A DNA stretch of 64,000 nt. Origin: Actinomycetes bacterium (GTDB lineage Bacteria; Actinomycetota; Acidimicrobiia; Acidimicrobiales; JAJYXR01). Below are positions 51,354 to 64,000 of this stretch, in pieces (positions within the stretch are counted from its first letter, which is position 1; each line of letters opens with the position of its first letter). The notes below the pieces were generated by a model. That model saw nothing but the letters and a program-made list of their open reading frames with translations. It was not told the origin of the DNA and made no database searches. The DNA is taken from positions 3,986-67,985 of the forward strand of contig JAJYXW010000153.1 of the NCBI GenBank assembly GCA_021801525.1. Direction: 5' to 3'. Position numbers and translations under genes: made by a program.

Positions 51354-51545
51354 AGCAGCGGCCCGGTAGCCGGCGAGGTTGGAAGTGGGCACGACGCGGG
51401 TAGGCTTGGGCTTCACATTGCGTTCGCGCTCGTTCGCCGAGCGGATCGACGGCTGTCGGCCCCAGAGGGCATTTGCGGGTGCTGGCGGTTGGTGAAGCGG
51501 GAGGAGGAGCCTTTAGTGGCTCTGGCTGCTGGTGGTGGTCCAGGG

Positions 51546-52943
51546 ATGTGGCCGGGGGCGTGGCCGGGTGGCCCGCCTAGGCTCTCGCGCCGGTCGCTCC
51601 TCCAAGCTGGCGCTGTCGCTGGCGGGGGGCTTGCCCTGGGTGCTTGCAGCTCGGGTCCGAGCGGGCGAACCGGGCTGGCGAAGCCGGCGGCACGGGCCAG
51701 GAACGTTCTGCCAGCGGGGACGCTGCCCCATCCGCACCTCCCCGAGGGTACTGACACGATCCCGGAGATCGACCACATCATGGTGGTCATGCTCGAGAAC
51801 CACTCCTTCGACAACATCCTCGGAATGCTCGGGCGAGGCGACGGCTTCACGCTCGGCTCGAACGGTGCGCCTACGGCTACCAATCCGAACGGCCGGGGCC
51901 AGCTCGTCCGGGCGTTCCACATGCCCACCCCCTGCCAGCTCCACGGCAAACCCTCCCAGTCGTGGAACGCGAGCCATGTCCAGTACGACCACGGGACCAA
52001 CGAAGGCTTCGTGGTCTCCAAGAGCGGGCCCGTCGCCATGGGCTACTGGACGCCACCCGACATGCCCTTCACCAACGGGCTCGCCAAGGTCTTCCCAATA
52101 GGGGACCGCTACTTCTGCTCAGTGCTCGGCCAGACCTTCCCGAACCGCAGGTACCTGATAGCGGGCACCTCGATCGGCATGGTCGACGACACCACACCGT
52201 CCGGGCTCCCACCCGCCGGGACGATCTTCGATTTGTTGAACCGCCACGGGATCCCTTGGCGCGACTACTACTCGAGCCTGCCCACGGCAGGCGTGTTCCT
52301 CCCGCTGCTCGGGCGCAAGGACATTGCGCCGAACCTGGTGCACATCAACCAGCTCTACGCGGACGCGGCGAGCGGGAACTTGCCGGCCTTCGCGATCGTC
52401 GACCCGAACTTCGGGACCGAGTCCGAGGAGGACCCCCAGGATATCCAATACGGCGATGTCTTCCTCGCCAAGGTGATGGGTGCTTTGATGTCCGGCCCCG
52501 CGTGGCCGAGCACGCTCGTCGTATGGAATTACGACGAGCACGGTGGTTATTACGATCACGTCCCGCCGCCGGCAGCGCCGGCTCCAGACGGCATCCCGCC
52601 TGCCATCAAGGTGCCGCCCGACCAGCCGGGCGGGTTCGACCGCTATGGGTTCAGGGTGCCCTTCGGGGTCGTGTCCCCGTACGCGAGGAAGGGCTACGTC
52701 TCCCACGTGGTCCACGACCACACCTCGGTGCTCAAACTGGTCGAGACGAAGTGGAACCTGCCCGCTCTCACTCGCCGCGACGCGAACGCCTCGGACTTGC
52801 TCGACAGCATCGACCTCGCCTCCCCGCCCGCCTTCTTGCACCCACCGACATTGCCTGCCCCAGCCAACCCTGCGCTCGAGGCGTCGTGCGAGCAGGCAGG
52901 GCCGGGGCTCATCCCGCCGCCGGCTGCAGTGGTGAGGGCCTGA
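51546..52943 (+). CDS. Phosphoesterase family protein (PF04185-type; phospholipase C/acid phosphatase AcpA-like), Tat signal
   Basis: LSRRSLLQAGAVAGGGLALGAC signal and IDHIMVVMLENHSFDNILG core. GTG at 51489 is an alternative start. Confidence 0.82.
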   Translation: MWPGAWPGGPPRLSRRSLLQAGAVAGGGLALGACSSGPSGRTGLAKPAARARNVLPAGTLPHPHLPEGTDTIPEIDHIMVVMLENHSFDNILGMLGRGDGFTLGSNGAPTATNPNGRGQLVRAFHMPTPCQLHGKPSQSWNASHVQYDHGTNEGFVVSKSGPVAMGYWTPPDMPFTNGLAKVFPIGDRYFCSVLGQTFPNRRYLIAGTSIGMVDDTTPSGLPPAGTIFDLLNRHGIPWRDYYSSLPTAGVFLPLLGRKDIAPNLVHINQLYADAASGNLPAFAIVDPNFGTESEEDPQDIQYGDVFLAKVMGALMSGPAWPSTLVVWNYDEHGGYYDHVPPPAAPAPDGIPPAIKVPPDQPGGFDRYGFRVPFGVVSPYARKGYVSHVVHDHTSVLKLVETKWNLPALTRRDANASDLLDSIDLASPPAFLHPPTLPAPANPALEASCEQAGPGLIPPPAAVVRA

Positions 52944-53169: not shown

Positions 53170-54624
53170 ATGGGATCCAACTACCAGGTAACCACCGGCG
53201 GGTCGGGATCGCGAAGCAAGCCTGGGCGCCTTCTAGGTGGGCACCTTCCCGAGCGGCGGCTGTCCAGGCGGCAGATCCTCCAGGGTGCCATGGTCGGTGG
53301 AGCGGGAGTTGCCCTTGCAGGGTGCGGGTCCTGGCCGTTCGGTGGGAGCGGGTCGAGCCTCCCAGCGGGGCCGAGGCCGTTCCCGACCAAGGCGGCCGGC
53401 ACCGACATGATCCCGGAGATCGACCACATCGTGGTGGTCATGCTCGAGAACCACTCCTTCGACAACGTCCTCGGGATGCTCGGGCGAGGCGACGGCTTCA
53501 CGCTCGGCTCGAACGGCCAACCGATGGCCACCAACCCCGAGTCGAACGGCGACCTCGTCCACGCCTTCCACACGCCTACACCGTGCCGGGCCTTCTCCGA
53601 GCCGGACCAGACCTGGAACGACAGCCACATGTCGTACTCGAACGGGACCAATCAAGGTTTCGTGCTCGCGAGCGGCCCGTCCGCGATGGCCTACTACGAC
53701 TCTTCCGACATGCCCTTCACCTACGGTCTCGCGGGATCCTTCCCGGTCTCGGACCAGTACTACTCCTCGCTGCTCGGCCAGACCTTCCCCAACCGCCGCT
53801 ACCTCATCTCGGGCACGTCGCTCGGGATGATCAACGACCTGCCCTCCTTCAGCGACGTGGTGGCGACGGTCGCCAACAGGCCCCCGAACGGCACGATATT
53901 CGACATGCTGAACTCCGTCGGGGTGTCGTGGAAGAACTACAACTACGGCATCTCGACGCTTATGCTCTACCCGTACCTGCTAACCGAACCCGCGAACTTC
54001 GGGAAGATGGTGGGGATCAACCAGTTCTACTCGGACGCGGCGAGCGGCGCCCTGCCGGCGTTCTCGCTCGTGGACCCCGACCTCGTAAACTTCGTCGGCA
54101 ACTCCGGCGGCGAGGGCGACGACATCCAACTGGCCGACAATTTCCTCGCGAGCATCGTCAACGCTCTTGTGAAGGGGCCGAAGTGGTCGAACACTCTCCT
54201 TGTCTGGAACTTCGACGAAGCCGGCGGGTACTACGACCACGTCCCGCCCCCGAGCGCCCCGGTCCCCGACGGCGTGGCGCCCGAGCTCACCTCCTCGGAC
54301 GAGCCGGGCAGCTTCGACCGCTACGGGTTCAGGGTGCCCTGCGGGCTCGTGTGCCCCTACGCGAGGCCCGGTTATGTCTCGCACGTGGTGGCGGATCACA
54401 CCTCGGTGTTGAAGCTGGTGGAGACCAAGTGGAATCTGCCGGCAATGACCAAGCGCGACGCTGCAGCCTCCGACCTACTTGACATGGTCGACTTCTCGTC
54501 CAAGCCCGCATTCCTCACGCCTCCGCGGCTTCCGGCGCCGGCAAACCCGAGCTCGCTGACGGTGGCAAGCTGCGAGATGAGCTCGGCGCAGAACCCTCCC
54601 GCAGGTTACGTCACCGCCGGCTGA
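53170..54624 (+). CDS. Phosphoesterase family protein (paralog of 51546..52943), Tat/lipoprotein-type signal
   Basis: LSRRQILQGAMVGGAGVALAGCG signal and IDHIVVVMLENHSFDNVLG core. Same length and colinear with the upstream paralog. Confidence 0.85.
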   Translation: MGSNYQVTTGGSGSRSKPGRLLGGHLPERRLSRRQILQGAMVGGAGVALAGCGSWPFGGSGSSLPAGPRPFPTKAAGTDMIPEIDHIVVVMLENHSFDNVLGMLGRGDGFTLGSNGQPMATNPESNGDLVHAFHTPTPCRAFSEPDQTWNDSHMSYSNGTNQGFVLASGPSAMAYYDSSDMPFTYGLAGSFPVSDQYYSSLLGQTFPNRRYLISGTSLGMINDLPSFSDVVATVANRPPNGTIFDMLNSVGVSWKNYNYGISTLMLYPYLLTEPANFGKMVGINQFYSDAASGALPAFSLVDPDLVNFVGNSGGEGDDIQLADNFLASIVNALVKGPKWSNTLLVWNFDEAGGYYDHVPPPSAPVPDGVAPELTSSDEPGSFDRYGFRVPCGLVCPYARPGYVSHVVADHTSVLKLVETKWNLPAMTKRDAAASDLLDMVDFSSKPAFLTPPRLPAPANPSSLTVASCEMSSAQNPPAGYVTAG

Positions 54625-54781: not shown

Positions 54782-55606
54782 TCAGGGCCGTCCCGTTCCC
54801 CAGCCGAAGTGGTCGACGGGTCCGTGGCCGGCCCCGAGAGTCCACGTAGCAGCGCCGCCGATGGCCCGGGTCACGTACTCTTTGGCCCGGGTGGCCGCCT
54901 CGGGCGCGCCGGCGCCGCGGGCGAGCCACGCGGCTATTGCAGCCGAGAATGTGCAGCCTGTCCCGTGGTCGTTGCGCGTGGCGACCCGGGCGGCCGGAAG
55001 GAGCGTGACCTCGCCCCCGGGGCCACCGGCCAGGACCACGTCGGGGGAGATCGCGCCTCGAAGGTGCCCGCCCTTGACCACGACGAGCTCCGCGCCCATC
55101 TCCGCGATCCTTCGGGCTGCAGCCTCCATGGCCCCGGTGGAGTCGATATCCGCCAGGTCCATCGAGGCGAGGAGGGCGGCTTCGAAGAGGTTGGGCGTCA
55201 GGACACGGGCACGGGGGACGAGCAGATCCCTGTAGGCATCCAGCCCTCCCTCGTCGAGGAGTGGCTTCCCGCTGGAGGACACGAGCACGGGGTCGACCAC
55301 TAGGTTTGGGATGACACCCTCGGCGGCGAGCTGCGCGACGACGCGCACGTTCGCGGCAGTGGCGAGCATCCCGGTCTTCGTGGCCCTGACCGGCATATCG
55401 TCGAGGACGGTGCGGACCTGGAGCTCCACGAAAGCGGGGTCCACGCTCAGCGTGGCACGTACCTCGGTGGTGCTCTGCGCCGTTATGGCGGTGAGAGCCG
55501 AGGTGCCGTGCACTGCGTGGGCTGCGAAGGTGAGCAGGTCCGCCTGGATCCCTGCGCCTCCCCCAGAGTCCGATCCGGCAATAGTGAGCGCAACGGGAGG
55601 GTCCAC
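54782..55606 (-). CDS. thiD: Hydroxymethylpyrimidine/phosphomethylpyrimidine kinase
   Basis: [22 protein letters not shown] and [12 protein letters not shown] motifs. Confidence 0.92.
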
Positions 55607-55696
55607 GCCGCCGAGCGTAGGGCGCGGCGCGAACCGGCGCAGCGCCCGAGAGCGCCGGCCGTGCCGGCGAGCGCGCCGGACGTGCCGGCGAGGTTC

Positions 55697-56810
<1,114 letters not shown>

Positions 56811-56815
56811 CCCAG

Positions 56816-58057
56816 TCAGTGGGCGCCGACGCCGAAGCGCTCGGCTCCGAAGGGGAGGATCGCGGCCGGGGGTTCCGAGCCTGTGAGCCATGCTGCCACC
56901 GCAACCGCACTTATCGGGGTCAAGAGTATGCCGTTTCGGTAGTGGCCGGTCGCGACTATGAGGCCGTCTACGCCCGAGCCGACTCCGTAAGCGGCGAGAA
57001 CGGGCGCGTTGTCGGGCGTGGCAGGGCGCAGGCCTGCACTCGCATCCACCAGCACCATCTCGCTCACTCCTGGTACGAGCCGGTGTGCCCGGCGGAGCAG
57101 GTCGTGGAGGCCCCCCGCGGTGACGCTCGTGTCGAAGCCCAGTTCTTCCGATGTCGCCCCGAGCAGCACCGACCCGTCGGAGCGCGGCACGAGATAGATC
57201 GGAGCACCCATCACGATTCCGCGCACGGTCCTCCCGATGAGCCGCCAAGTCACGCCCTGGGGCGAGGCTCCCGAAGTCGGGGGAGGGGCCAGACGGATGA
57301 TCTGGCCCTTCACTGGCCTGAGAGGGGGAAGCGCACCCTCGGGCACTCCTGCGATGCCGCCTGACCAGCACCCTGCGGCGATGACAACGCGGGTCGCCGC
57401 GAGCTCGCCGCCGCTCGCGAGGCGCACCCCGCTGACGCTGCCGGCCGAGGTGAGAAGCTCCACCGCCTTGTCGGTCACGAAGCGGGTGCCTTCGTGGTGG
57501 CAGGCTGCCTCGAGAGCGGCGACGAGGGCACGGGTGCGTACTTGGTGGTCGTGGCGTGCCCAGAGAGCGGCTCGCACGCCGGGGGCGAGATTCCCCTCGA
57601 GCTCGCGGGCCTTGGACCCGACCAGCCAGTCGACGTCGAGTGCCAGCGAGCGCTGCAGCTCGTAGAGCTCGTGGGCTGCCTCCCTGTCGTCTTCATCGAA
57701 CGCCGCGAGCAGGGTGCCGCAGCGGAGGTATCCGACATCCATGCCGGTTGCCTCCTCGAGCTCGGCGGCGAAGGGCGGCCATTGGCCGGCAGCCGCCAGC
57801 CCCAGAGCGAGAAGCGCCTCCTCGCCGTAGTGGGCTTCGGTCACCGGAGCGAGCATCCCCGCTGCCATCCATGACGCGCCGCGCCCTGGAGCGGGGTCCA
57901 CCAGTGCCACCGACATGCCGGCGCGGCTGGCCTTCCACGCGGAGGCGAGCCCTATGGCCCCTCCGCCGATCACGACCACGTCCGAGGCTGGCGGGCTCGC
58001 TGGTGTACCGGGCGCGCGGGAGGCTGCGGCATCGGGGGAAGTCAAGGCATGCTCCAC
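56816..58057 (-). CDS. thiO: Glycine oxidase ThiO (FAD-dependent)
   Basis: DVVVIGGGAIGLASAW dinucleotide-binding motif and position upstream of thiS-thiG. GTG at 58057 within track ORF 56816..58609. Confidence 0.85.
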   Translation of the reverse strand: MEHALTSPDAAASRAPGTPASPPASDVVVIGGGAIGLASAWKASRAGMSVALVDPAPGRGASWMAAGMLAPVTEAHYGEEALLALGLAAAGQWPPFAAELEEATGMDVGYLRCGTLLAAFDEDDREAAHELYELQRSLALDVDWLVGSKARELEGNLAPGVRAALWARHDHQVRTRALVAALEAACHHEGTRFVTDKAVELLTSAGSVSGVRLASGGELAATRVVIAAGCWSGGIAGVPEGALPPLRPVKGQIIRLAPPPTSGASPQGVTWRLIGRTVRGIVMGAPIYLVPRSDGSVLLGATSEELGFDTSVTAGGLHDLLRRAHRLVPGVSEMVLVDASAGLRPATPDNAPVLAAYGVGSGVDGLIVATGHYRNGILLTPISAVAVAAWLTGSEPPAAILPFGAERFGVGAH

Positions 58058-58207
58058 GCCAACCGATCGTATGCCTGCGCTGGCCGCTCCGCTCGGGCAG
58101 CACCGCGAGGGGCCTGTTGACCACCAGGCGTGGGAGGCATAGCCTGGCACCGAGCGTTCCCTGGCAAGCGGGGGCGTGCCAACCCAGGGAGGGGCCAGGT
58201 AGAAGGT

Positions 58208-61200
58208 TTGGGACCTAAGTTCTTCAGGCGCGCCAGGGCGAGGTGGGCGCTGTCCAAGTCGGGGAAGTCGGCGATGGCGACCGTGGCGGCCGTGGCGCTC
58301 GCTACGGGGGCAGGCGGCATGCTCTTGCCCGCCACTGCTCCTTACGCCGCCGGAGCTCCGGCGAGCACGCCTTCGGGCGGGCAGGCGGTGAGCTCGCAGG
58401 TGGGGATCGAGCGCGCTCTCGCGACGGCTGCCGGGAGGCAGCCCGCAGCAGTTGGCAACCCGGGCCCGGCATTGCCTGGGGCGAGGATCACCGGGCGCCT
58501 GGCGGCTTCCCGGGAGATCCGCTTCGACGTGGTGCTGCGTCCACGCGACCCGGCTTCGCTCAGCGCATTCCTCCGTTCCCTGTACACGCCAGGCTCGCCT
58601 ACGTACCACAAGTTCCTCGCGCGCGGGCAGTTCGGGTCCAGGTTCGGCGCCACTCCAGGCACGATCGCCGGCGTGCGCACGGAGCTCGCGGCTCTGGGCC
58701 TCGACCCGGGACGCCCCAGCGCTGACGGGCTCGTGCTGCCCGTGAGGTCGAGGGCGCTTGCCGTGGAACGTGCGCTAGGTGTCACCGAGGCCAGGTTCGT
58801 GCTCCCGAGCGGGCGGGTCGCGTTCTCGAACTTGCAGGCCCCGAAGCTTCCGTCCGCGATCGCACGATACGTGAGCGCGGTCGTGGGCCTCTCGACAATC
58901 GCGCGCGCCCGGCCGCTCGCAGCGAGCGCAACGTCACCTGCATGCCTCTCCCCATTCGGACCAGCCGGCGGCGTCGCCGGTATCGTCGAGAGTGGCTTCG
59001 GCAGGCTTGCCGCCTCGGGTGTCCCGGCCGCCTCGGGTGTCCCGGGCGTCCCGGCTGGATCTGCGGCCTCGCGCTGCGCGTCGCGTGCCGAGCTGCCGCG
59101 TGCCGGACTGCTGGCCGGTGGGTTCCAGCGCGCCGGGCTGCATGCGGCCTGGCCCATGGGGTCAGCTCGCCCGAGCCTGTCGCGCCTCGGTGGCCTGCAT
59201 GTGGCAAGCACAGGTGCGAGCAGATCAGTGCGCCCGGCTGGCAGCAGCATCGGCAGCACAGGCACAGGCGGCAGCGCGCGAAATGCGTTGCTCGCACCCC
59301 GCAGCACCTCGGTGGCTAGCGCGTGCGCGGCGGCGGCCGATGCCGCGAGCGCGAACGGCGCGTATACGGCCAGCCAGCTCGCGACCGCATACGGATTCGC
59401 GTCGGGCGCCTACGTGAGCGGGCACCTCGGCGCCGGCGAGACGATAGGGATCTTGACGCTCGGTCCGTACTCGACCTCCGACATATCAGCGTTCGAGAGC
59501 TGCTACGGGATCTCGACCAAGGTGACGCCGGTCGCGGTCGGGGGCGGGACGGTGTCGGGGTTCGGCAACAGCGTGGAGTCGACGCTCGACATCGAGGTCG
59601 CAGCCGGGCTCGCTCCCCAGGCGAGCATCATCCCCTACGAAGCGCCTCCGACGGGAGCCGGCCCCTTCGAGGACTATATGGCTATGGCCAACGCGGATGC
59701 CGCCCAGGTCGTGTCGGCCAGCTATGGGCTCTGCGAGGCGTACGTCGGCAGCGCGGCGGCCCAGGCGGAGAACACGATCTTCGAGCAGATGGCGGCCCAG
59801 GGACAGACAATGGTCGCTGCTGCGGGCGACAACGGTTCCGAGGACTGCTACTCGTCCGGCGGCGGCCCGGTTGGCCCGGGATCGGGGCTCTCAGCGGCCG
59901 CCTGCCCCGCCTCGGCCTCCACCTGCCTGGCGGTGGGCATGGACGTGAACGACGGAGAGGGCGTGGTCGTCCCGGTGCCAGGAGGCGTACCTGGAAAGGC
60001 GGTAGCTGTACCGGGCACCGAGACGCTCTACGGGATCGCCTGCGACTCGGACATCACCTGCTATGCGGTAGGCACCACCGCGAACGGCGTCGGAGTGGTG
60101 GTCCCGATCTCCCAAGGCGCGCCTGGCGCGCCGTTCCTGGTGCCGACAGCGGCATCCCTCATGGGCATCTCCTGCGTGCCCGGCACGACTTCGTGCCTGG
60201 CCGCGGGCACCAACGAGTACGGCGTCGGAGTGGTGGTCCCGATTTTCGGCGGCGTGGCGTCGAGTGCCCAGACGGCGGTCGGCACTTCGGTCCTCCTCGG
60301 GGTCGCCTGCCCCTCGACTGCTGCGTGCGCTGCCGTGGGGATCGACTCGAGCTCGAGCAATCCTGAAGGGGCAGCGGTGGTGGTGACGTCCGGAGGAGTC
60401 GGGAGTGCCGTCGACCTCCCCTCGACGGCTTCGATGGACGGTATATATTGCACGGCTGCTGACACCTGCGTAGCCGTGGGCTCGAGCTCCAGCGGAGACG
60501 GGGTGGTGGCATCGATCACCTCTGGCGTGGCGGGCAAGCCACAGATGCTCAGCTCGTCGGGGCCGCTGTCCGCTGTGGCGTGCAGCTCGTCGAGCGCGTG
60601 CTACGCAGTGGGGACGGGCACCTCGCTGTCGGGCAGCGTGGTGGCGATCACGAGTGGTACGGCCGGAACCCCGGGCGAGGTCCTCGGAACAAGCATGCTC
60701 GGCGGGGTGGCCTGCCCGAGCGGGTCGGCGTGCTTCGCGGTGGGCTCGGATATGGCCGGCAACGGGGCTGTGGCGACGATTACGCCTGGTCCGGCCTTTG
60801 GCGTGCTGACGGCTGGGCAGGCGGCGCCGGCCTCGATCTCCCTCGACTCGCTTTCGTGCGCCTCCCCCACCTCCTGCCTCGCGGTCGGGAGCGACCAGAA
60901 CGGCCTCGGAGTGGTGATGCCTATCACCAACGGAACCCCCGGAGCTCCCGTGGAGGTGGCGGGAGCGGCCGCCCTCTTCGGGGTGTCGTGTGTCTCCTCG
61001 GGCACCTGCGAGGCCGTGGGCATGGGGTTCTCGGCCAGCTCGGGCCTCGCTGGGGTCGCGCTCGAGGTGAACGGCAGCCAGCTCGGCCAGGTCGAGACGG
61101 TGAGCAGCTCCGTAGCCCTCGAAGCTGTCTCGTGCTACGGGGCGGGGGACTGCGAAGCTGCCGGCGTCGGGGGGATCGCGTCTGGGCCCGCATCGGCGGG

Positions 61201-64000
61201 TAACGGAGTGCTGGTGCCGATCGCGAACGGCGCTCCGGGCAGCGCGACGAGCATCCCCGGGGTGCTCTTCGCCGGCGTCGCGTGCAGCTCCTCGTCGTCG
61301 TGCGCCGCCGTCGGGGCGGAGCCCCTGCCGAGTGGAGGGAGCGAGGGCGCAGTGGTAAGCGTCTCGGGCGGCACGGCGGGATCCCCCGAGCTGGTCAGCG
61401 GGGCGGCCGCCCTGAACTCGGTCGCGTGCTCTTCGGCAACTTCCTGCGAGGCTGCCGGCTACGTCTCGGGTGCGTCGGGCAGCGCCGAGGGCGTGCTGGT
61501 CGCGCTGTCGAGCGGCACGCCGGGGAGCCCGCTCGACGTGGCGGAAACCTCGGCGCTCCTCGGCATCTCGTGCGCGTCGTCCACCTGCGAGGCCTCCGGT
61601 GTCGATCTCACCGGGCCGACCAGCAGCAACGGGGTGGTGGTGGCGATTAGCGGGGGCTTACCCGCCAGCCCGCAGGGCGTGCCGGCAAGCTCGGGACTTG
61701 ACGCCATATCCTGCACGTCCTCGACTCTCTGCGAGGCGGTGGGGAACGACCCGGCAGGCAATCCCCAGGTGCTCCAGGTGAGCGGGGGAGCGCCGGGAAG
61801 CCCGGTGCTCGCCTGGTTCGGACCGGGTCTCTACGGAGTCTCGTGCTCCGCCTCGGCCTGCGAGGCGGCCGGTTCGTCGGGGCAGAGCGCCAGCCTCTCG
61901 GCACTTACGAGCGGGTCCGCAGGAGCACCCGTGGTGGTGCCTGGCGCCATCGCCCTTGTCGCTGTGTCCTGCCCGGCGACGGGGAGCTGCGAGGCCGTTG
62001 GCCTCAGCGCGGGCGGCGAAGGGGTCGTCCTAGGGGTGTCAGGCGGCACGGCAGGTAGCCCCGTCGCAGTGCCGGGCACCTCGGAGCTGACGTCGGTGTC
62101 GTGTGTTTCGGTCGGCAACTGCGTGGCCGTCGGCTCCAGCGCGGGCGGCGAAGGGGTCGTCGTCGCCATTGGCAATGGCACGCCCGGCGCTGCATCGGCA
62201 GTTGCAGGCACGAGCGGTCTCACGGGCGTGTCCTGCGCGTCCGCGAGTACGTGCGAGGCCGTCGGGTACGAGATCGCTTCGGGGGGTTCGCCCGGAGGCG
62301 TGGCACTCACCGTCACCGGCGGTACTCCCGGAAGCGTCGTCGCGCTGAGTGGCACGAGCGTACTGAACGGCATCTCGTGCGCGTCGGCCAGCACCTGCGA
62401 GGCGGTCGGGGGCGAGATCACCTCCTCGGGGTCGGGCTCGTCTGCGAGTGCTCCGGCAGAGGGCGTCGTGGTTAGCCTGGCGAGTGGCTCCCCCGGCAGC
62501 GCTCAGGCAGTCGCAGGAGCGTTCTCCCTCTACGCGGTCTCGTGCGCGACTTCGGGCAGCTGCGAAGCCACCGGGTCGAGCGAGTCAGGAGCGTACAGCG
62601 TGGTCGTAGGCGTGAGCGGCGGGGTACCGGGGAGTGTGATCGGGACCTGGGCAGCCGTGCTCCAGGGGCTCTCGTGTGCCTCCACCACCACCTGCGTGCT
62701 CGTGGGATCGGACCAGGCAGGTCAGGGAGTGGCCCTGGCCACGTCGAGCGGGGTCCCGCTGGACACCCTCTACTCGGCGTCCATGCCCATAGGACTTGCC
62801 GTGGACGACCCGGCATCCCAGCCTTTCGTGACGGCGGTCGGGGGCACGAGTCTCACCTCGCTCGGCCCACCCCCGGTCCAGTCCGCCTGGAACAACGGCG
62901 TGGCATCGGGCGGTGGAGCCGGAGGTGGCGGGATCTCTTCCATCTGGCAGATGCCGTCCTGGCAGAAGGGGACCGGCGTGGTCAACCAGTACTCGAGCGG
63001 GTCCCCCTGCGGGGCCCCCTCGGGCAGCTATTGCCGCGAGGTCCCCGATGTGTCCGCTTCGGCGGACCCGAACCACGGAGACGTCATCTACTACCAGGGA
63101 GCGTGGCAGGTCATCGGAGGCACCAGCGAAGCGGCCCCCCTCTGGGCGGCCCTGGTCGCCGTGGCCAACGAGGGATGCTCGAGCTCGACGGGCTTCGCGA
63201 ACCCGGCTCTCTATGCTCACGCGAGCGACCTCCAAGGCGTCACCATGGGCAACAACGACTACACCGGCACCAACGGTGGGCTCTACCCGGCGACCGCCGG
63301 ATACAACCTGGCCACCGGTCTCGGCACGCCCACTGCTGCGATCTTCGCCCCGGGAGCCCTTTGCCCGGCTCCGCTGGCGGAGCCGTCTGCCAGCGGGCTC
63401 ACGGTGGTGCCGGCGGACAACACGACCGGGGCGACGACCACTTACCAGGTGAGCTTCACCACTTCCTCCAAGGGGGCTCTGGCGGCTCCTGCTTCCATCT
63501 ACCTGACCATGACCGCTGGTACGACCATGCCGGCCTCCTCCGCAGACTACGCCGTCAGCGACGTCGCAGGGGGCTCCGACAAGGTGTCCTCGGTGACCGT
63601 CTTCGCTGCAGGAGGGTCTGCTACGCCCAACGAGGTCGCCATCTCCCTCTCTGCCTCGAGCATCACCGCGAACGACGGCGTCGCCATCGCGATCTCGGGA
63701 GTCGCGAACCCTTCGCTCGCCTCGCCCGATGACACGGCGACCGCAAGCACCTCCGCCGATACGGTCGTGCTGACATCGGCGCCCTACGCTGTCGTCGCGC
63801 CGCCGGTGGTCACGGGTACCTACGTCCCCATGTCTCCGGCGCGCATAGTAGACACCCGCTGCTCGGAGTCCCCGCTGCCGGCCTCGCTCAGCGCCTCGTA
63901 CTGCGCGGCGCTTCCCACGGCCAACGCCTCGCTGTCCTCGCCGGCGGGCGCGAAGAAGATCCACGTGCAGGTGACCGGCGTCGGCGGCGTGCCGGACACC
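58208..64000 (+). CDS. Giant exported S53 (sedolisin/kumamolisin-type) peptidase, 3'-truncated by the window end, with a large intradomain repeat insertion
   Basis: The frame in phase with 58226 has no stop from 58208 or earlier to 64000. It is absent from the ORF track because there is no stop codon in the window. Motifs in order: signal-like KSGKSAMATVAAVALATGAGGMLLPATAPYAAG; pro-kumamolisin activation domain (FDVVLRPRDPASLSAFLRSLYTPGSPTYHKFL...); catalytic VESTLDIEVAAG (Glu 59576, Asp 59588), SASYGLCE, AAAGDNGSEDC (Asp 59828), VDDPASQPFVTAVGGTSL (62801-), GGTSEAAPLWAA (Ser 63125). Start is either TTG at 58208 or ATG at 58274. Confidence 0.85.
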   Translation, partial: MGPKFFRRARARWALSKSGKSAMATVAAVALATGAGGMLLPATAPYAAGAPASTPSGGQAVSSQVGIERALATAAGRQPAAVGNPGPALPGARITGRLAASREIRFDVVLRPRDPASLSAFLRSLYTPGSPTYHKFLARGQFGSRFGATPGTIAGVRTELAALGLDPGRPSADGLVLPVRSRALAVERALGVTEARFVLPSGRVAFSNLQAPKLPSAIARYVSAVVGLSTIARARPLAASATSPACLSPFGPAGGVAGIVESGFGRLAASGVPAASGVPGVPAGSAASRCASRAELPRAGLLAGGFQRAGLHAAWPMGSARPSLSRLGGLHVASTGASRSVRPAGSSIGSTGTGGSARNALLAPRSTSVASACAAAADAASANGAYTASQLATAYGFASGAYVSGHLGAGETIGILTLGPYSTSDISAFESCYGISTKVTPVAVGGGTVSGFGNSVESTLDIEVAAGLAPQASIIPYEAPPTGAGPFEDYMAMANADAAQVVSASYGLCEAYVGSAAAQAENTIFEQMAAQGQTMVAAAGDNGSEDCYSSGGGPVGPGSGLSAAACPASASTCLAVGMDVNDGEGVVVPVPGGVPGKAVAVPGTETLYGIACDSDITCYAVGTTANGVGVVVPISQGAPGAPFLVPTAASLMGISCVPGTTSCLAAGTNEYGVGVVVPIFGGVASSAQTAVGTSVLLGVACPSTAACAAVGIDSSSSNPEGAAVVVTSGGVGSAVDLPSTASMDGIYCTAADTCVAVGSSSSGDGVVASITSGVAGKPQMLSSSGPLSAVACSSSSACYAVGTGTSLSGSVVAITSGTAGTPGEVLGTSMLGGVACPSGSACFAVGSDMAGNGAVATITPGPAFGVLTAGQAAPASISLDSLSCASPTSCLAVGSDQNGLGVVMPITNGTPGAPVEVAGAAALFGVSCVSSGTCEAVGMGFSASSGLAGVALEVNGSQLGQVETVSSSVALEAVSCYGAGDCEAAGVGGIASGPASAGNGVLVPIANGAPGSATSIPGVLFAGVACSSSSSCAAVGAEPLPSGGSEGAVVSVSGGTAGSPELVSGAAALNSVACSSATSCEAAGYVSGASGSAEGVLVALSSGTPGSPLDVAETSALLGISCASSTCEASGVDLTGPTSSNGVVVAISGGLPASPQGVPASSGLDAISCTSSTLCEAVGNDPAGNPQVLQVSGGAPGSPVLAWFGPGLYGVSCSASACEAAGSSGQSASLSALTSGSAGAPVVVPGAIALVAVSCPATGSCEAVGLSAGGEGVVLGVSGGTAGSPVAVPGTSELTSVSCVSVGNCVAVGSSAGGEGVVVAIGNGTPGAASAVAGTSGLTGVSCASASTCEAVGYEIASGGSPGGVALTVTGGTPGSVVALSGTSVLNGISCASASTCEAVGGEITSSGSGSSASAPAEGVVVSLASGSPGSAQAVAGAFSLYAVSCATSGSCEATGSSESGAYSVVVGVSGGVPGSVIGTWAAVLQGLSCASTTTCVLVGSDQAGQGVALATSSGVPLDTLYSASMPIGLAVDDPASQPFVTAVGGTSLTSLGPPPVQSAWNNGVASGGGAGGGGISSIWQMPSWQKGTGVVNQYSSGSPCGAPSGSYCREVPDVSASADPNHGDVIYYQGAWQVIGGTSEAAPLWAALVAVANEGCSSSTGFANPALYAHASDLQGVTMGNNDYTGTNGGLYPATAGYNLATGLGTPTAAIFAPGALCPAPLAEPSASGLTVVPADNTTGATTTYQVSFTTSSKGALAAPASIYLTMTAGTTMPASSADYAVSDVAGGSDKVSSVTVFAAGGSATPNEVAISLSASSITANDGVAIAISGVANPSLASPDDTATASTSADTVVLTSAPYAVVAPPVVTGTYVPMSPARIVDTRCSESPLPASLSASYCAALPTANASLSSPAGAKKIHVQVTGVGGVPDT
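59880..62790 (+). repeat. Protein-level array of about 21 diverged repeats of about 46 aa (about 138 bp), each with a C-x(5-7)-C-x-A-[VA]-G core
   Basis: Cores read in frame: AACPASASTCLAVG, IACDSDITCYAVG, ISCVPGTTSCLAAG, VACPSTAACAAVG, IYCTAADTCVAVG, VACSSSSACYAVG, VACPSGSACFAVG, LSCASPTSCLAVG, VSCVSSGTCEAVG, VSCYGAGDCEAAG, VACSSSSSCAAVG, VACSSATSCEAAG, ISCASSTCEASG, ISCTSSTLCEAVG, VSCSASACEAAG, VSCPATGSCEAVG, VSCVSVGNCVAVG, VSCASASTCEAVG, ISCASASTCEAVG, VSCATSGSCEATG, LSCASTTTCVLVG. Confidence 0.85.

Follow-up and report, generated by a model that had tools for sequence, protein, structure and literature searches.

The serine-carboxyl peptidases of MEROPS family S53 (kumamolisin, sedolisin and TPP1) carry a pro-domain, a triad of catalytic residues (Ser-Glu-Asp) and an oxyanion Asp, with the roles of the catalytic residues as described (PMC2635056); in kumamolisin-As, Arg or Lys at P1 is bound by an S1 subsite of which Asp358 and Asp368 are part (review, PMC8541236). 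Here we analyse a stretch of 64,000 nucleotides of an uncultured Acidimicrobiales bacterium, called the window below (GenBank assembly GCA_021801525.1, contig JAJYXW010000153.1, positions 3,986 to 67,985), in which one long gene encodes a peptidase that shares all of these features, including the two S1 Asp residues. The window protein differs from the S53 members in a 976-amino-acid (aa) insert in place of an 8-residue loop, a linker of ~140 aa and extra C-terminal domains. The insert is an array of 21 two-cysteine repeats, which we read as three tandem seven-bladed beta-propellers.

Accessory domains are known to interrupt the catalytic domain of other serine peptidases, as PA domains do in plant subtilases and C5a peptidase. 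The subtilases (S8) resemble the window protein in that an accessory beta domain lies within a subtilisin-like catalytic domain, between catalytic residues; the jellyroll of CspB is such a domain, which stabilises the enzyme and aids its autoprocessing (PMC3567191). These inserts are single domains of ~130 aa with other folds, whereas that of the window protein spans ~1000 aa, with three predicted propellers, in an S53 enzyme. Prolyl oligopeptidase and acylaminoacyl peptidase (S9) and tricorn have a seven-bladed propeller near a serine peptidase active site and are among the structural neighbours found below. They differ in their alpha/beta hydrolase fold and in having the propeller as a terminal or separate domain rather than a loop insertion. 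The repeats themselves are closest to Ycf48/HCF136-type and other BNR propellers (PF14870, PF02012, PF13088), which likewise have seven four-stranded blades of ~45 aa each and whose Asp-box lies where the window blades have a conserved turn between strands C and D. In contrast to these, the window blades have no Asp-box and each holds an invariant Cys-x4-6-Cys pair; three propellers stand in tandem, and the module occurs in extracellular enzymes rather than in photosystem assembly. In literature searches on S53 peptidases with propellers, on domain insertions in S53 and on Asp-box propellers with Cys residues in Actinobacteria, CspB was the one relevant precedent to emerge. The blade family and the S53 architecture with an inserted propeller both appear to be unannotated; each is a variant of a well-known kind and not a new category.

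The domain layout of the gene, with residues numbered from the TTG at 58208, is as follows.

58208..64000, + strand: multidomain S53 peptidase gene of secreted type, a single gene cut by the window end.
58208..58360, + strand: signal-peptide-like N-terminus (MGPKFFRRARARWALSKSGKSAMATVAAVALATGAGGMLLPATAPYAAG), judged by eye from the sequence.
58478..58894, + strand: Pro-kumamolisin activation (pro) domain, Arg-rich, Pfam PF09286, aa 91-229.
58910..59335, + strand: low-complexity linker of ~140 aa from pro-domain to catalytic domain, the gap between alignments to 1t1e.
59339..59854, + strand: S53 catalytic domain, N-terminal part, kumamolisin mature residues 1-172 (phmmer against PDB 1t1e/1t1g).
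59882..60832, + strand: predicted propeller 1, units 1-7, from unit coordinates, the AlphaFold2 model and Foldseek.
60839..61819, + strand: putative propeller 2, units 8-14, its boundary inferred from the modularity of seven.
61826..62797, + strand: putative propeller 3, units 15-21, with a short return linker (SSGVPLDTLYSASMPIGLA), from unit coordinates and the counts of 7, 14 and 21 in relatives.
62801..63367, + strand: S53 catalytic domain, C-terminal part, kumamolisin mature residues 178-359 (phmmer against PDB, E 1e-25).
63368..64000, + strand: C-terminal region, an Ig-like segment followed by the start of a 'YxPxxPxRIxDTR...VDVEGYY' domain, from the translation and the full tail in ortholog P0241.

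Kumamolisin (1t1e/1t1g) aligns to the window protein in two pieces, aa 378-549 with mature residues 1-172 and aa 1532-1720 with mature residues 178-359 (phmmer against PDB), the break falling at chain residues 360 and 366 of 1t1e. The contiguous catalytic domain of ~360 aa that serves as a criterion for S53 is here split at kumamolisin residues 172/178, and the loop replaced by the array is kumamolisin G170-H177. The catalytic motifs LDIEV, AAAGD and GGTS are conserved on the two sides of the split and place the key residues as follows.

59576-59578, + strand: catalytic Glu457, in LDIEV, by alignment to 1t1e/1t1g.
59588-59590, + strand: catalytic Asp461, in LDIEV, by alignment to 1t1e/1t1g.
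59828-59830, + strand: oxyanion Asp541, in AAAGD.
59843-59845, + strand: S1 Asp546, aligned to kumamolisin-As Asp358.
62804-62806, + strand: S1 Asp1533, aligned to kumamolisin-As Asp368.
63125-63127, + strand: nucleophile Ser1640, in GGTSEAAP, by alignment to 1t1e/1t1g.

By this alignment the host of the array is a kumamolisin-like S53 serine-carboxyl peptidase that retains an intact Ser-Glu-Asp triad, its oxyanion Asp and the two Asp residues of S1. The insert begins six residues past the oxyanion Asp and between the two S1 Asp residues, Asp546 and Asp1533, which immediately flank it, so that the propellers are expected to emerge from the wall of the S1 pocket. A preliminary description of this DNA, made from the sequence alone, had reported the repeats and missed that they interrupt an S53 catalytic domain.

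The array comprises 21 units of 42-55 aa each at 59882-62797 on the + strand, within a few bases of the interval 59880-62790 reported in that description. Exactly 21 sites match the pattern C-x(2-8)-C-x(1-2)-[AVLST]-G, with first-Cys codons from nt 59903 to 62675 at spacings of 42-55 aa; of the protein's 54 Cys, 42 lie in the array. When the motif is tightened to C-x(4-6)-C-x-A-[VAST]-G, 20 sites are left, while 2000 residue shuffles gave 0.07 on average and 3 at most. All 21 units align in register with MAFFT, at a mean pairwise identity of 38% (range 22-55%), and yield the consensus h-x-L-x-G-[VI]-[SA]-C-x(4-6)-C-x-A-[VA]-G-x(4-14)-G-[VA]-V-V-x-[IV]-x-x-G-x-[PA]-G-x-x-x-x-V. A unit hidden Markov model (HMM), trained on the same 21 units, gave 21 matches in a six-frame translation of the whole window, all at 59882-62758 and in the peptidase frame only. 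The earlier count of about 21 homologous two-Cys units is thus confirmed by the pattern sites, the alignment register and the HMM. Tandem Repeats Finder reported no DNA-level repeat over the array, from which we conclude, in agreement with the earlier view, that the DNA copies are well diverged. Units seven apart share an identity of 0.40, compared with a mean of 0.38 across all unit pairs, and there is thus no sign of a recent whole-propeller duplication. S53 homology flanks the array on both sides in the same frame.

Whether the unit forms a family had been left to a search, and it does: at least 472 matches were obtained among the 8000 candidates scored from 5.8 billion proteins, most of them without a Pfam domain over the repeat. 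In the 120 matches listed, the unit HMM assigned 7 units to 49 proteins, 14 to 50 and 21 to a single one, and almost all of the rest lie one unit away from 7, 14 or 21, which points to a seven-unit structural module. AlphaFold2 modelled units 1-7 (aa 545-880; multiple sequence alignment of 51 sequences) as a closed seven-bladed propeller of 7 x 4 strands, with a predicted local distance difference test score (pLDDT) of 91.1 and a predicted template-modelling score (pTM) of 0.89. On the strength of this model we are confident that units 1-7 form a seven-bladed beta-propeller of four-stranded blades. We make no claim of a velcro closure through an N-terminal strand; in the model each unit uses its own strand D. 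A Foldseek search of the model against PDB returned seven-bladed propellers only, at query template-modelling scores (TMq) of 0.6-0.75, including CylK, ARPC1, WD40 proteins, the PHL lectin, Ycf48 (5ojr_C, E 1.3e-6) and the propeller of acylaminoacyl peptidase (4re6_B, 3o4j_D). None of these neighbours is a specific close relative, and the similarity to WD40 proteins is at fold level, with 8-14% identity. Much of what the preliminary description had conjectured about the fold is borne out by these results: four-stranded blades by the model of units 1-7 (pLDDT 91), a division of 21 into 3 x 7 by the counts of 7, 14 and 21 in relatives together with the seven-bladed model, and the Foldseek check it had proposed by the uniformly seven-bladed matches.

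Sequence profiles gave no comparable signal. Pfam and NCBIfam had no match to the repeats, including each seven-unit third at E<=10, in keeping with the earlier remark that the units lack the hallmarks of BNR, Kelch, WD40, FG-GAP, NHL, PQQ and RCC1; the Pfam repeat profiles for WD40, Kelch, FG-GAP, NHL, PQQ, RCC1 and YVTN did not match the window units, and a profile of the seven-unit module found no chain among PDB sequences at E<=1. Judging from the sequences retrieved, the Cys-hairpin propellers are a large family borne by secreted proteins, mostly metagenomic and from Actinomycetota where named; the family has no Pfam or NCBIfam model and appears unannotated. Within it, blades of a 'WxxGxxW' flavour in P0041 and P0027 show weak summed matches to Pfam DUF2510 and DUF6087, which suggests that part of what these short models pick up is the turn between strands C and D in blades of this kind.

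The nearest annotated blades are reached through intermediate sequences. Two proteins that match the window array, P0042 (E 3e-37) and P0074 (E 2e-29), combine the same L-x-G-[IV]-x-C-x5-C-x-AVG hairpin with a canonical Asp-box, TTDGGxTW, after strand C. Both pass the Pfam PSII_BNR model, at 67.6 and 42.1 bits respectively (gathering cut-off 27), and P0074 passes BNR too. When the window unit profile was aligned with the P0042 and P0074 unit profiles by hhalign, the probability was 97% (E ~1e-10). The Asp-box S-x-D-x-G-x-T-W is present in 0/21 window units, where the position reads (T/S)xGxPG, and a third flavour, W-N-G-x-E-W, occupies it in P0067 and others. The window units are best read as an Asp-box-less branch of the BNR/Ycf48-like propellers, in which, by this comparison, the Asp-box between strands C and D became (T/S)xGxPG. 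The preliminary description had found no named family for the unit. That holds as far as profile matches go, and it does not make the unit an orphan fold, given its homology to Asp-box blades that pass PSII_BNR.

An invariant Cys-x4-6-Cys pair is present in every window unit, and the module alignment shows no variation in its Cys columns. Across 119 homologs both Cys occur in 1292/1295 units, a figure to be read with the bias of unit detection towards Cys-containing units; the other three are truncated fragments, and there is no single-Cys unit. In the model, Cys1 closes strand A, the innermost, and Cys2 opens strand B, with the turn of 4-6 residues between them. Because of these positions, the co-presence of the two residues and the export signal, one disulfide per blade, within the strand A-B hairpin, is likely. 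The earlier proposal of one short disulfide per unit in an exported protein is plausible on the same grounds, since the Cys pair flanks the A-B turn; its export half looks likely, and the bond itself is deduced.

Two other assemblies carry this architecture too, at 99% identity. A full-length ortholog, P0241 (99% identical, 1989 aa from ATG), lies on a 27-kb contig of NCBI GCA_027410225.1, and a fragment in GCA_054609735.1, on the independent contig P0001, spans the junction from the repeats to the C-terminal part of S53. The window and P0241 genes differ by 10 synonymous and 11 non-synonymous codons, too few for the ratio of non-synonymous to synonymous rates (dN/dS) to be informative. The insertion at first seemed unique to the window protein: the 119 closest word-indexed S53 relatives have no insert at this loop, their gap ranging from -3 to +13 aa. 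An exhaustive phmmer search, with the N-terminal part of S53 plus the repeats as query, overturned that impression. Besides the ortholog, inserts of 283-815 aa stand at the same loop in 10 of the other 98 S53 representatives containing both halves, and 88 of all 99 representatives have none there. The inserted relatives are these.

P0362 (2094 aa), insert at the same loop: 17 units, several of them near-identical.
P0363, insert at the same loop: 14 units.
P0365, insert at the same loop: about 7 units (HMM 7, regular expression 8).
P0366, insert at the same loop: about 7 units (count 6).
P0371, insert at the same loop: 7 blades of WNG type.
P0387, insert at the same loop: 7 short blades of F/YxGSxWS type.
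P0442, P0463, P0467 and P0480, insert at the same loop: a seven-bladed propeller of lactonase/YVTN/NHL type, 325-334 aa.

Two further fragments, P0364 and P0461, look the same. The last four proteins of the list share with the window protein the S53 clade, the insertion point and the number of blades; their propeller is of an unrelated family (PF10282/PF01436), has no Cys hairpins and is present in single copy. In P0480 the insert matches Pfam Lactonase PF10282 (aa 434-731) and NHL. With propellers at this loop in at least 10 other representatives, the loop is, as far as the alignments tell, a recurrent propeller insertion site in this S53 clade, of which the window protein is the largest case seen. 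The use of exactly the same loop by two unrelated propeller families suggests that the position itself is selected.

The composition of the protein is unusual. The insert holds 0 Arg, 0 His, 2 Lys and 50 Asp plus Glu in 976 aa; over its 1551 aa the mature part as a whole counts 8 Lys and 3 Arg, compared with 19 Arg in the 151 aa of the pro-domain. Across the family, Lys plus Arg make up a median of 1.0% of propeller regions and 4.7% of the remainder of the same proteins. An acidic mature part poor in Lys and Arg behind an Arg-rich pro-domain would fit an acid-active enzyme with a basic, pH-released pro-domain, and the scarcity of both residues could protect the enzyme from autolysis if the Asp-lined S1 pocket prefers a basic P1 residue. 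The composition would also fit the insert being an integral part of the mature enzyme, which, with so little Lys and Arg and probably stapled by disulfides, may be a very robust acid protease.

Taken as a whole, these data are probably best explained by a triple-propeller insert in an S53 peptidase that acts as a disulfide-stapled binding or access platform at the rim of S1. The pre-pro-enzyme would be exported and, as happens in other S53 enzymes at acidic pH, would shed its Arg-rich pro-domain by autocatalysis. With almost no Lys or Arg, the mature enzyme would then be shielded from its own probable basic-P1 specificity. Each blade would have its A-B hairpin stapled by the Cys-x4-6-Cys disulfide, and the three rigid propellers would be positioned at the rim of the S1 pocket, as the insertion point in the alignment indicates. 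From there they would bind a ligand or substrate or limit access, and so recruit or select what reaches the active site. We regard a platform role at the active-site rim as likely on the evidence of the insertion point.

Several observations weigh against this explanation. The AlphaFold2 model of the whole array (1011 aa) has a pLDDT of 63, with propeller 1 alone confident, the probable cause being that MAFFT placed most homologs on a single propeller; for propellers 2 and 3 the assignment follows from analogy with the first. The inserted relative P0362 has 17 units, no multiple of seven, which could mean either that the repeat collapsed in assembly or that the seven-unit rule has a real exception. 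As to the origin of the blades, BNR-type Pfam profiles have no match at E<=1 over the whole protein or at E<=10 over the seven-unit thirds, the link to BNR rests on intermediate sequences, and the hhalign alignment covers strands A-C only. The Cys-hairpin module also stands N- or C-terminal to many other enzymes and C-terminal in some S53 proteins, which means that it can work away from an active site.

This last point underlies the main rival, in which the propellers are a targeting or anchoring module only, directed to cell wall, polysaccharide or surface and accommodated in a permissive loop with no effect on access or specificity. As an N- or C-terminal fusion partner the module accompanies polysaccharide deacetylases, GDSL lipases, Ig-like/TIG/fn3 domains and pentapeptide repeats, Cys-hairpin propellers lie C-terminal in the S53 proteins P0058, P0067, P0449 and P0424, and the Foldseek neighbours include sugar-binding propeller lectins (PHL). 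However, a loop between the S1 Asp residues and six residues past the oxyanion Asp is not neutral, and two unrelated propeller families have entered exactly this loop in different S53 lineages. We consider targeting without any effect on the active site a real possibility, though a rather unlikely one. The same position could instead mean that the propellers gate or enclose the active site and restrict the enzyme to substrates that are small or unfolded, like the propeller of prolyl oligopeptidase (S9) or of tricorn. Insertion at the S1 rim, the acylaminoacyl peptidase propeller (4re6_B, 3o4j_D) among the Foldseek matches and the recurrence of seven-bladed insertions at this site speak for such a gate, but three propellers exceed the needs of a lid and many close relatives work without any insert, and we think it distinctly doubtful. 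A broader proposal, that a clade of actinobacterial S53 peptidases repeatedly captured seven-bladed propellers at the S1-wall loop, from two or more unrelated families, and that the three disulfide-stapled propellers here form a substrate-selecting chamber or gate, is one we would hold as a long shot of about the same weight.

Two further alternatives concern the array itself. The preliminary description had raised a disulfide-stapled beta array as an alternative to propellers, and the lack of any Pfam, NCBIfam or PDB sequence-profile match would suit a new non-propeller fold unrelated to known repeats. The confident seven-bladed model, the counts of 7, 14 and 21 and the homology to Asp-box blades that pass PSII_BNR leave that reading without support, and we judge it very improbable. 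Slightly more improbable still is that the insertion is chimeric through assembly, or that the segment is untranslated or has become a pseudogene. A long repeat from a metagenomic source invites the suspicion, as do the near-identical units of P0362, which could reflect assembly collapse; yet the frame is open over ~5.9 kb and S53 homology continues in phase to either side of the array, the same junctions appear in three independent assemblies, the DNA copies are too diverged for collapse, diverged relatives share the architecture, and the GC content at third codon positions (GC3) is 0.83. The idea that the segment is not translated, named in the preliminary description as a way to refute it, is not borne out by the open frame, GC3 and in-phase homology.

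The propeller insert between the S1 residues, and the family from which it is built, matter in several ways. The Cys-hairpin propellers appear to be an uncatalogued and widespread family of hundreds of proteins or more with no solved structure detectable by sequence, and because they link Asp-box (BNR/Ycf48-like) blades to Asp-box-less forms they are useful for annotation and for the study of blade evolution. The S53 insert offers a test, provided by nature, of what a large insertion at the rim of the active site does to the specificity, access or stability of a protease. Such a test is of interest since kumamolisin already serves as a scaffold for engineering (the gluten-degrading KumaMax line). 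If the chamber reading were true, the enzyme would be a self-compartmentalised serine-carboxyl peptidase, a functional parallel to prolyl oligopeptidase or tricorn built by loop insertion.

The reading frame of the peptidase gene, which is absent from a list of complete open reading frames because it runs past the 3' end of the window, was established by translating the three + strand frames. The frame containing nt 58502 has no stop from 58121 to the window end (nt 64000), and the start candidates are TTG 58208 and ATG 58274. The array lies wholly within this one open reading frame, of about 1989 codons with the part beyond the window. GC content at codon positions 1, 2 and 3 is 0.64/0.67/0.83, the pattern expected of a translated high-GC gene. 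Given its signal-peptide-like N-terminus, the protein is probably exported. The pro-domain match to PF09286 has an E of 1.4e-19 and 71 bits, against a cut-off of 23.5.

In the linker that follows, Tandem Repeats Finder identified an 18-bp tandem repeat of 2.1 copies at 59009-59045, encoding AASGVP repeats. P0241 lacks one copy, a 6-aa indel, and the repeat is thus polymorphic between strains. At the other end of the protein, the 'YxPxxPxRIxDTR...VDVEGYY' domain covers window ~63770-64000 and continues beyond (aa ~1840-1989 in P0241). Pfam at E<=10 gave no match in the C-terminal region, this domain included. It is present in one copy in the window protein and in 3 or 4 tandem copies in the S53 relatives P0362, P0363, P0365, P0371 and P0387, and P0407, a propeller protein, has it at the N-terminus. 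It has the look of a further extracellular module without annotation.

The DnaE encoded in the window is 74-81% identical to the relatives listed for it, apart from two matches at 92% and 100%, and all of those that bear a taxon label are metagenome-assembled genomes of Acidimicrobiales bacteria. The peptidase gene is divergent from a thiD-thiG-thiS-thiO cluster at 54782-58045 on the - strand. In the 228-bp intergenic region between them (57800-58500 scanned), no thiamine pyrophosphate (TPP) riboswitch or other Rfam family was found at gathering score, and neither a sigma-70-like promoter nor an intrinsic terminator. Two tandem PF04185 phosphoesterase paralogs of the phospholipase C/acid phosphatase type, 484 aa each, lie at 51489-52943 and 53170-54624 on the + strand. 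The neighbours of P0241 are the same as those in the window, with two PF04185 phosphoesterases, thiD, thiG, thiS and thiO upstream and gltB and gltD downstream, and the tandem PF04185 arrangement is kept in the ortholog contig L002.

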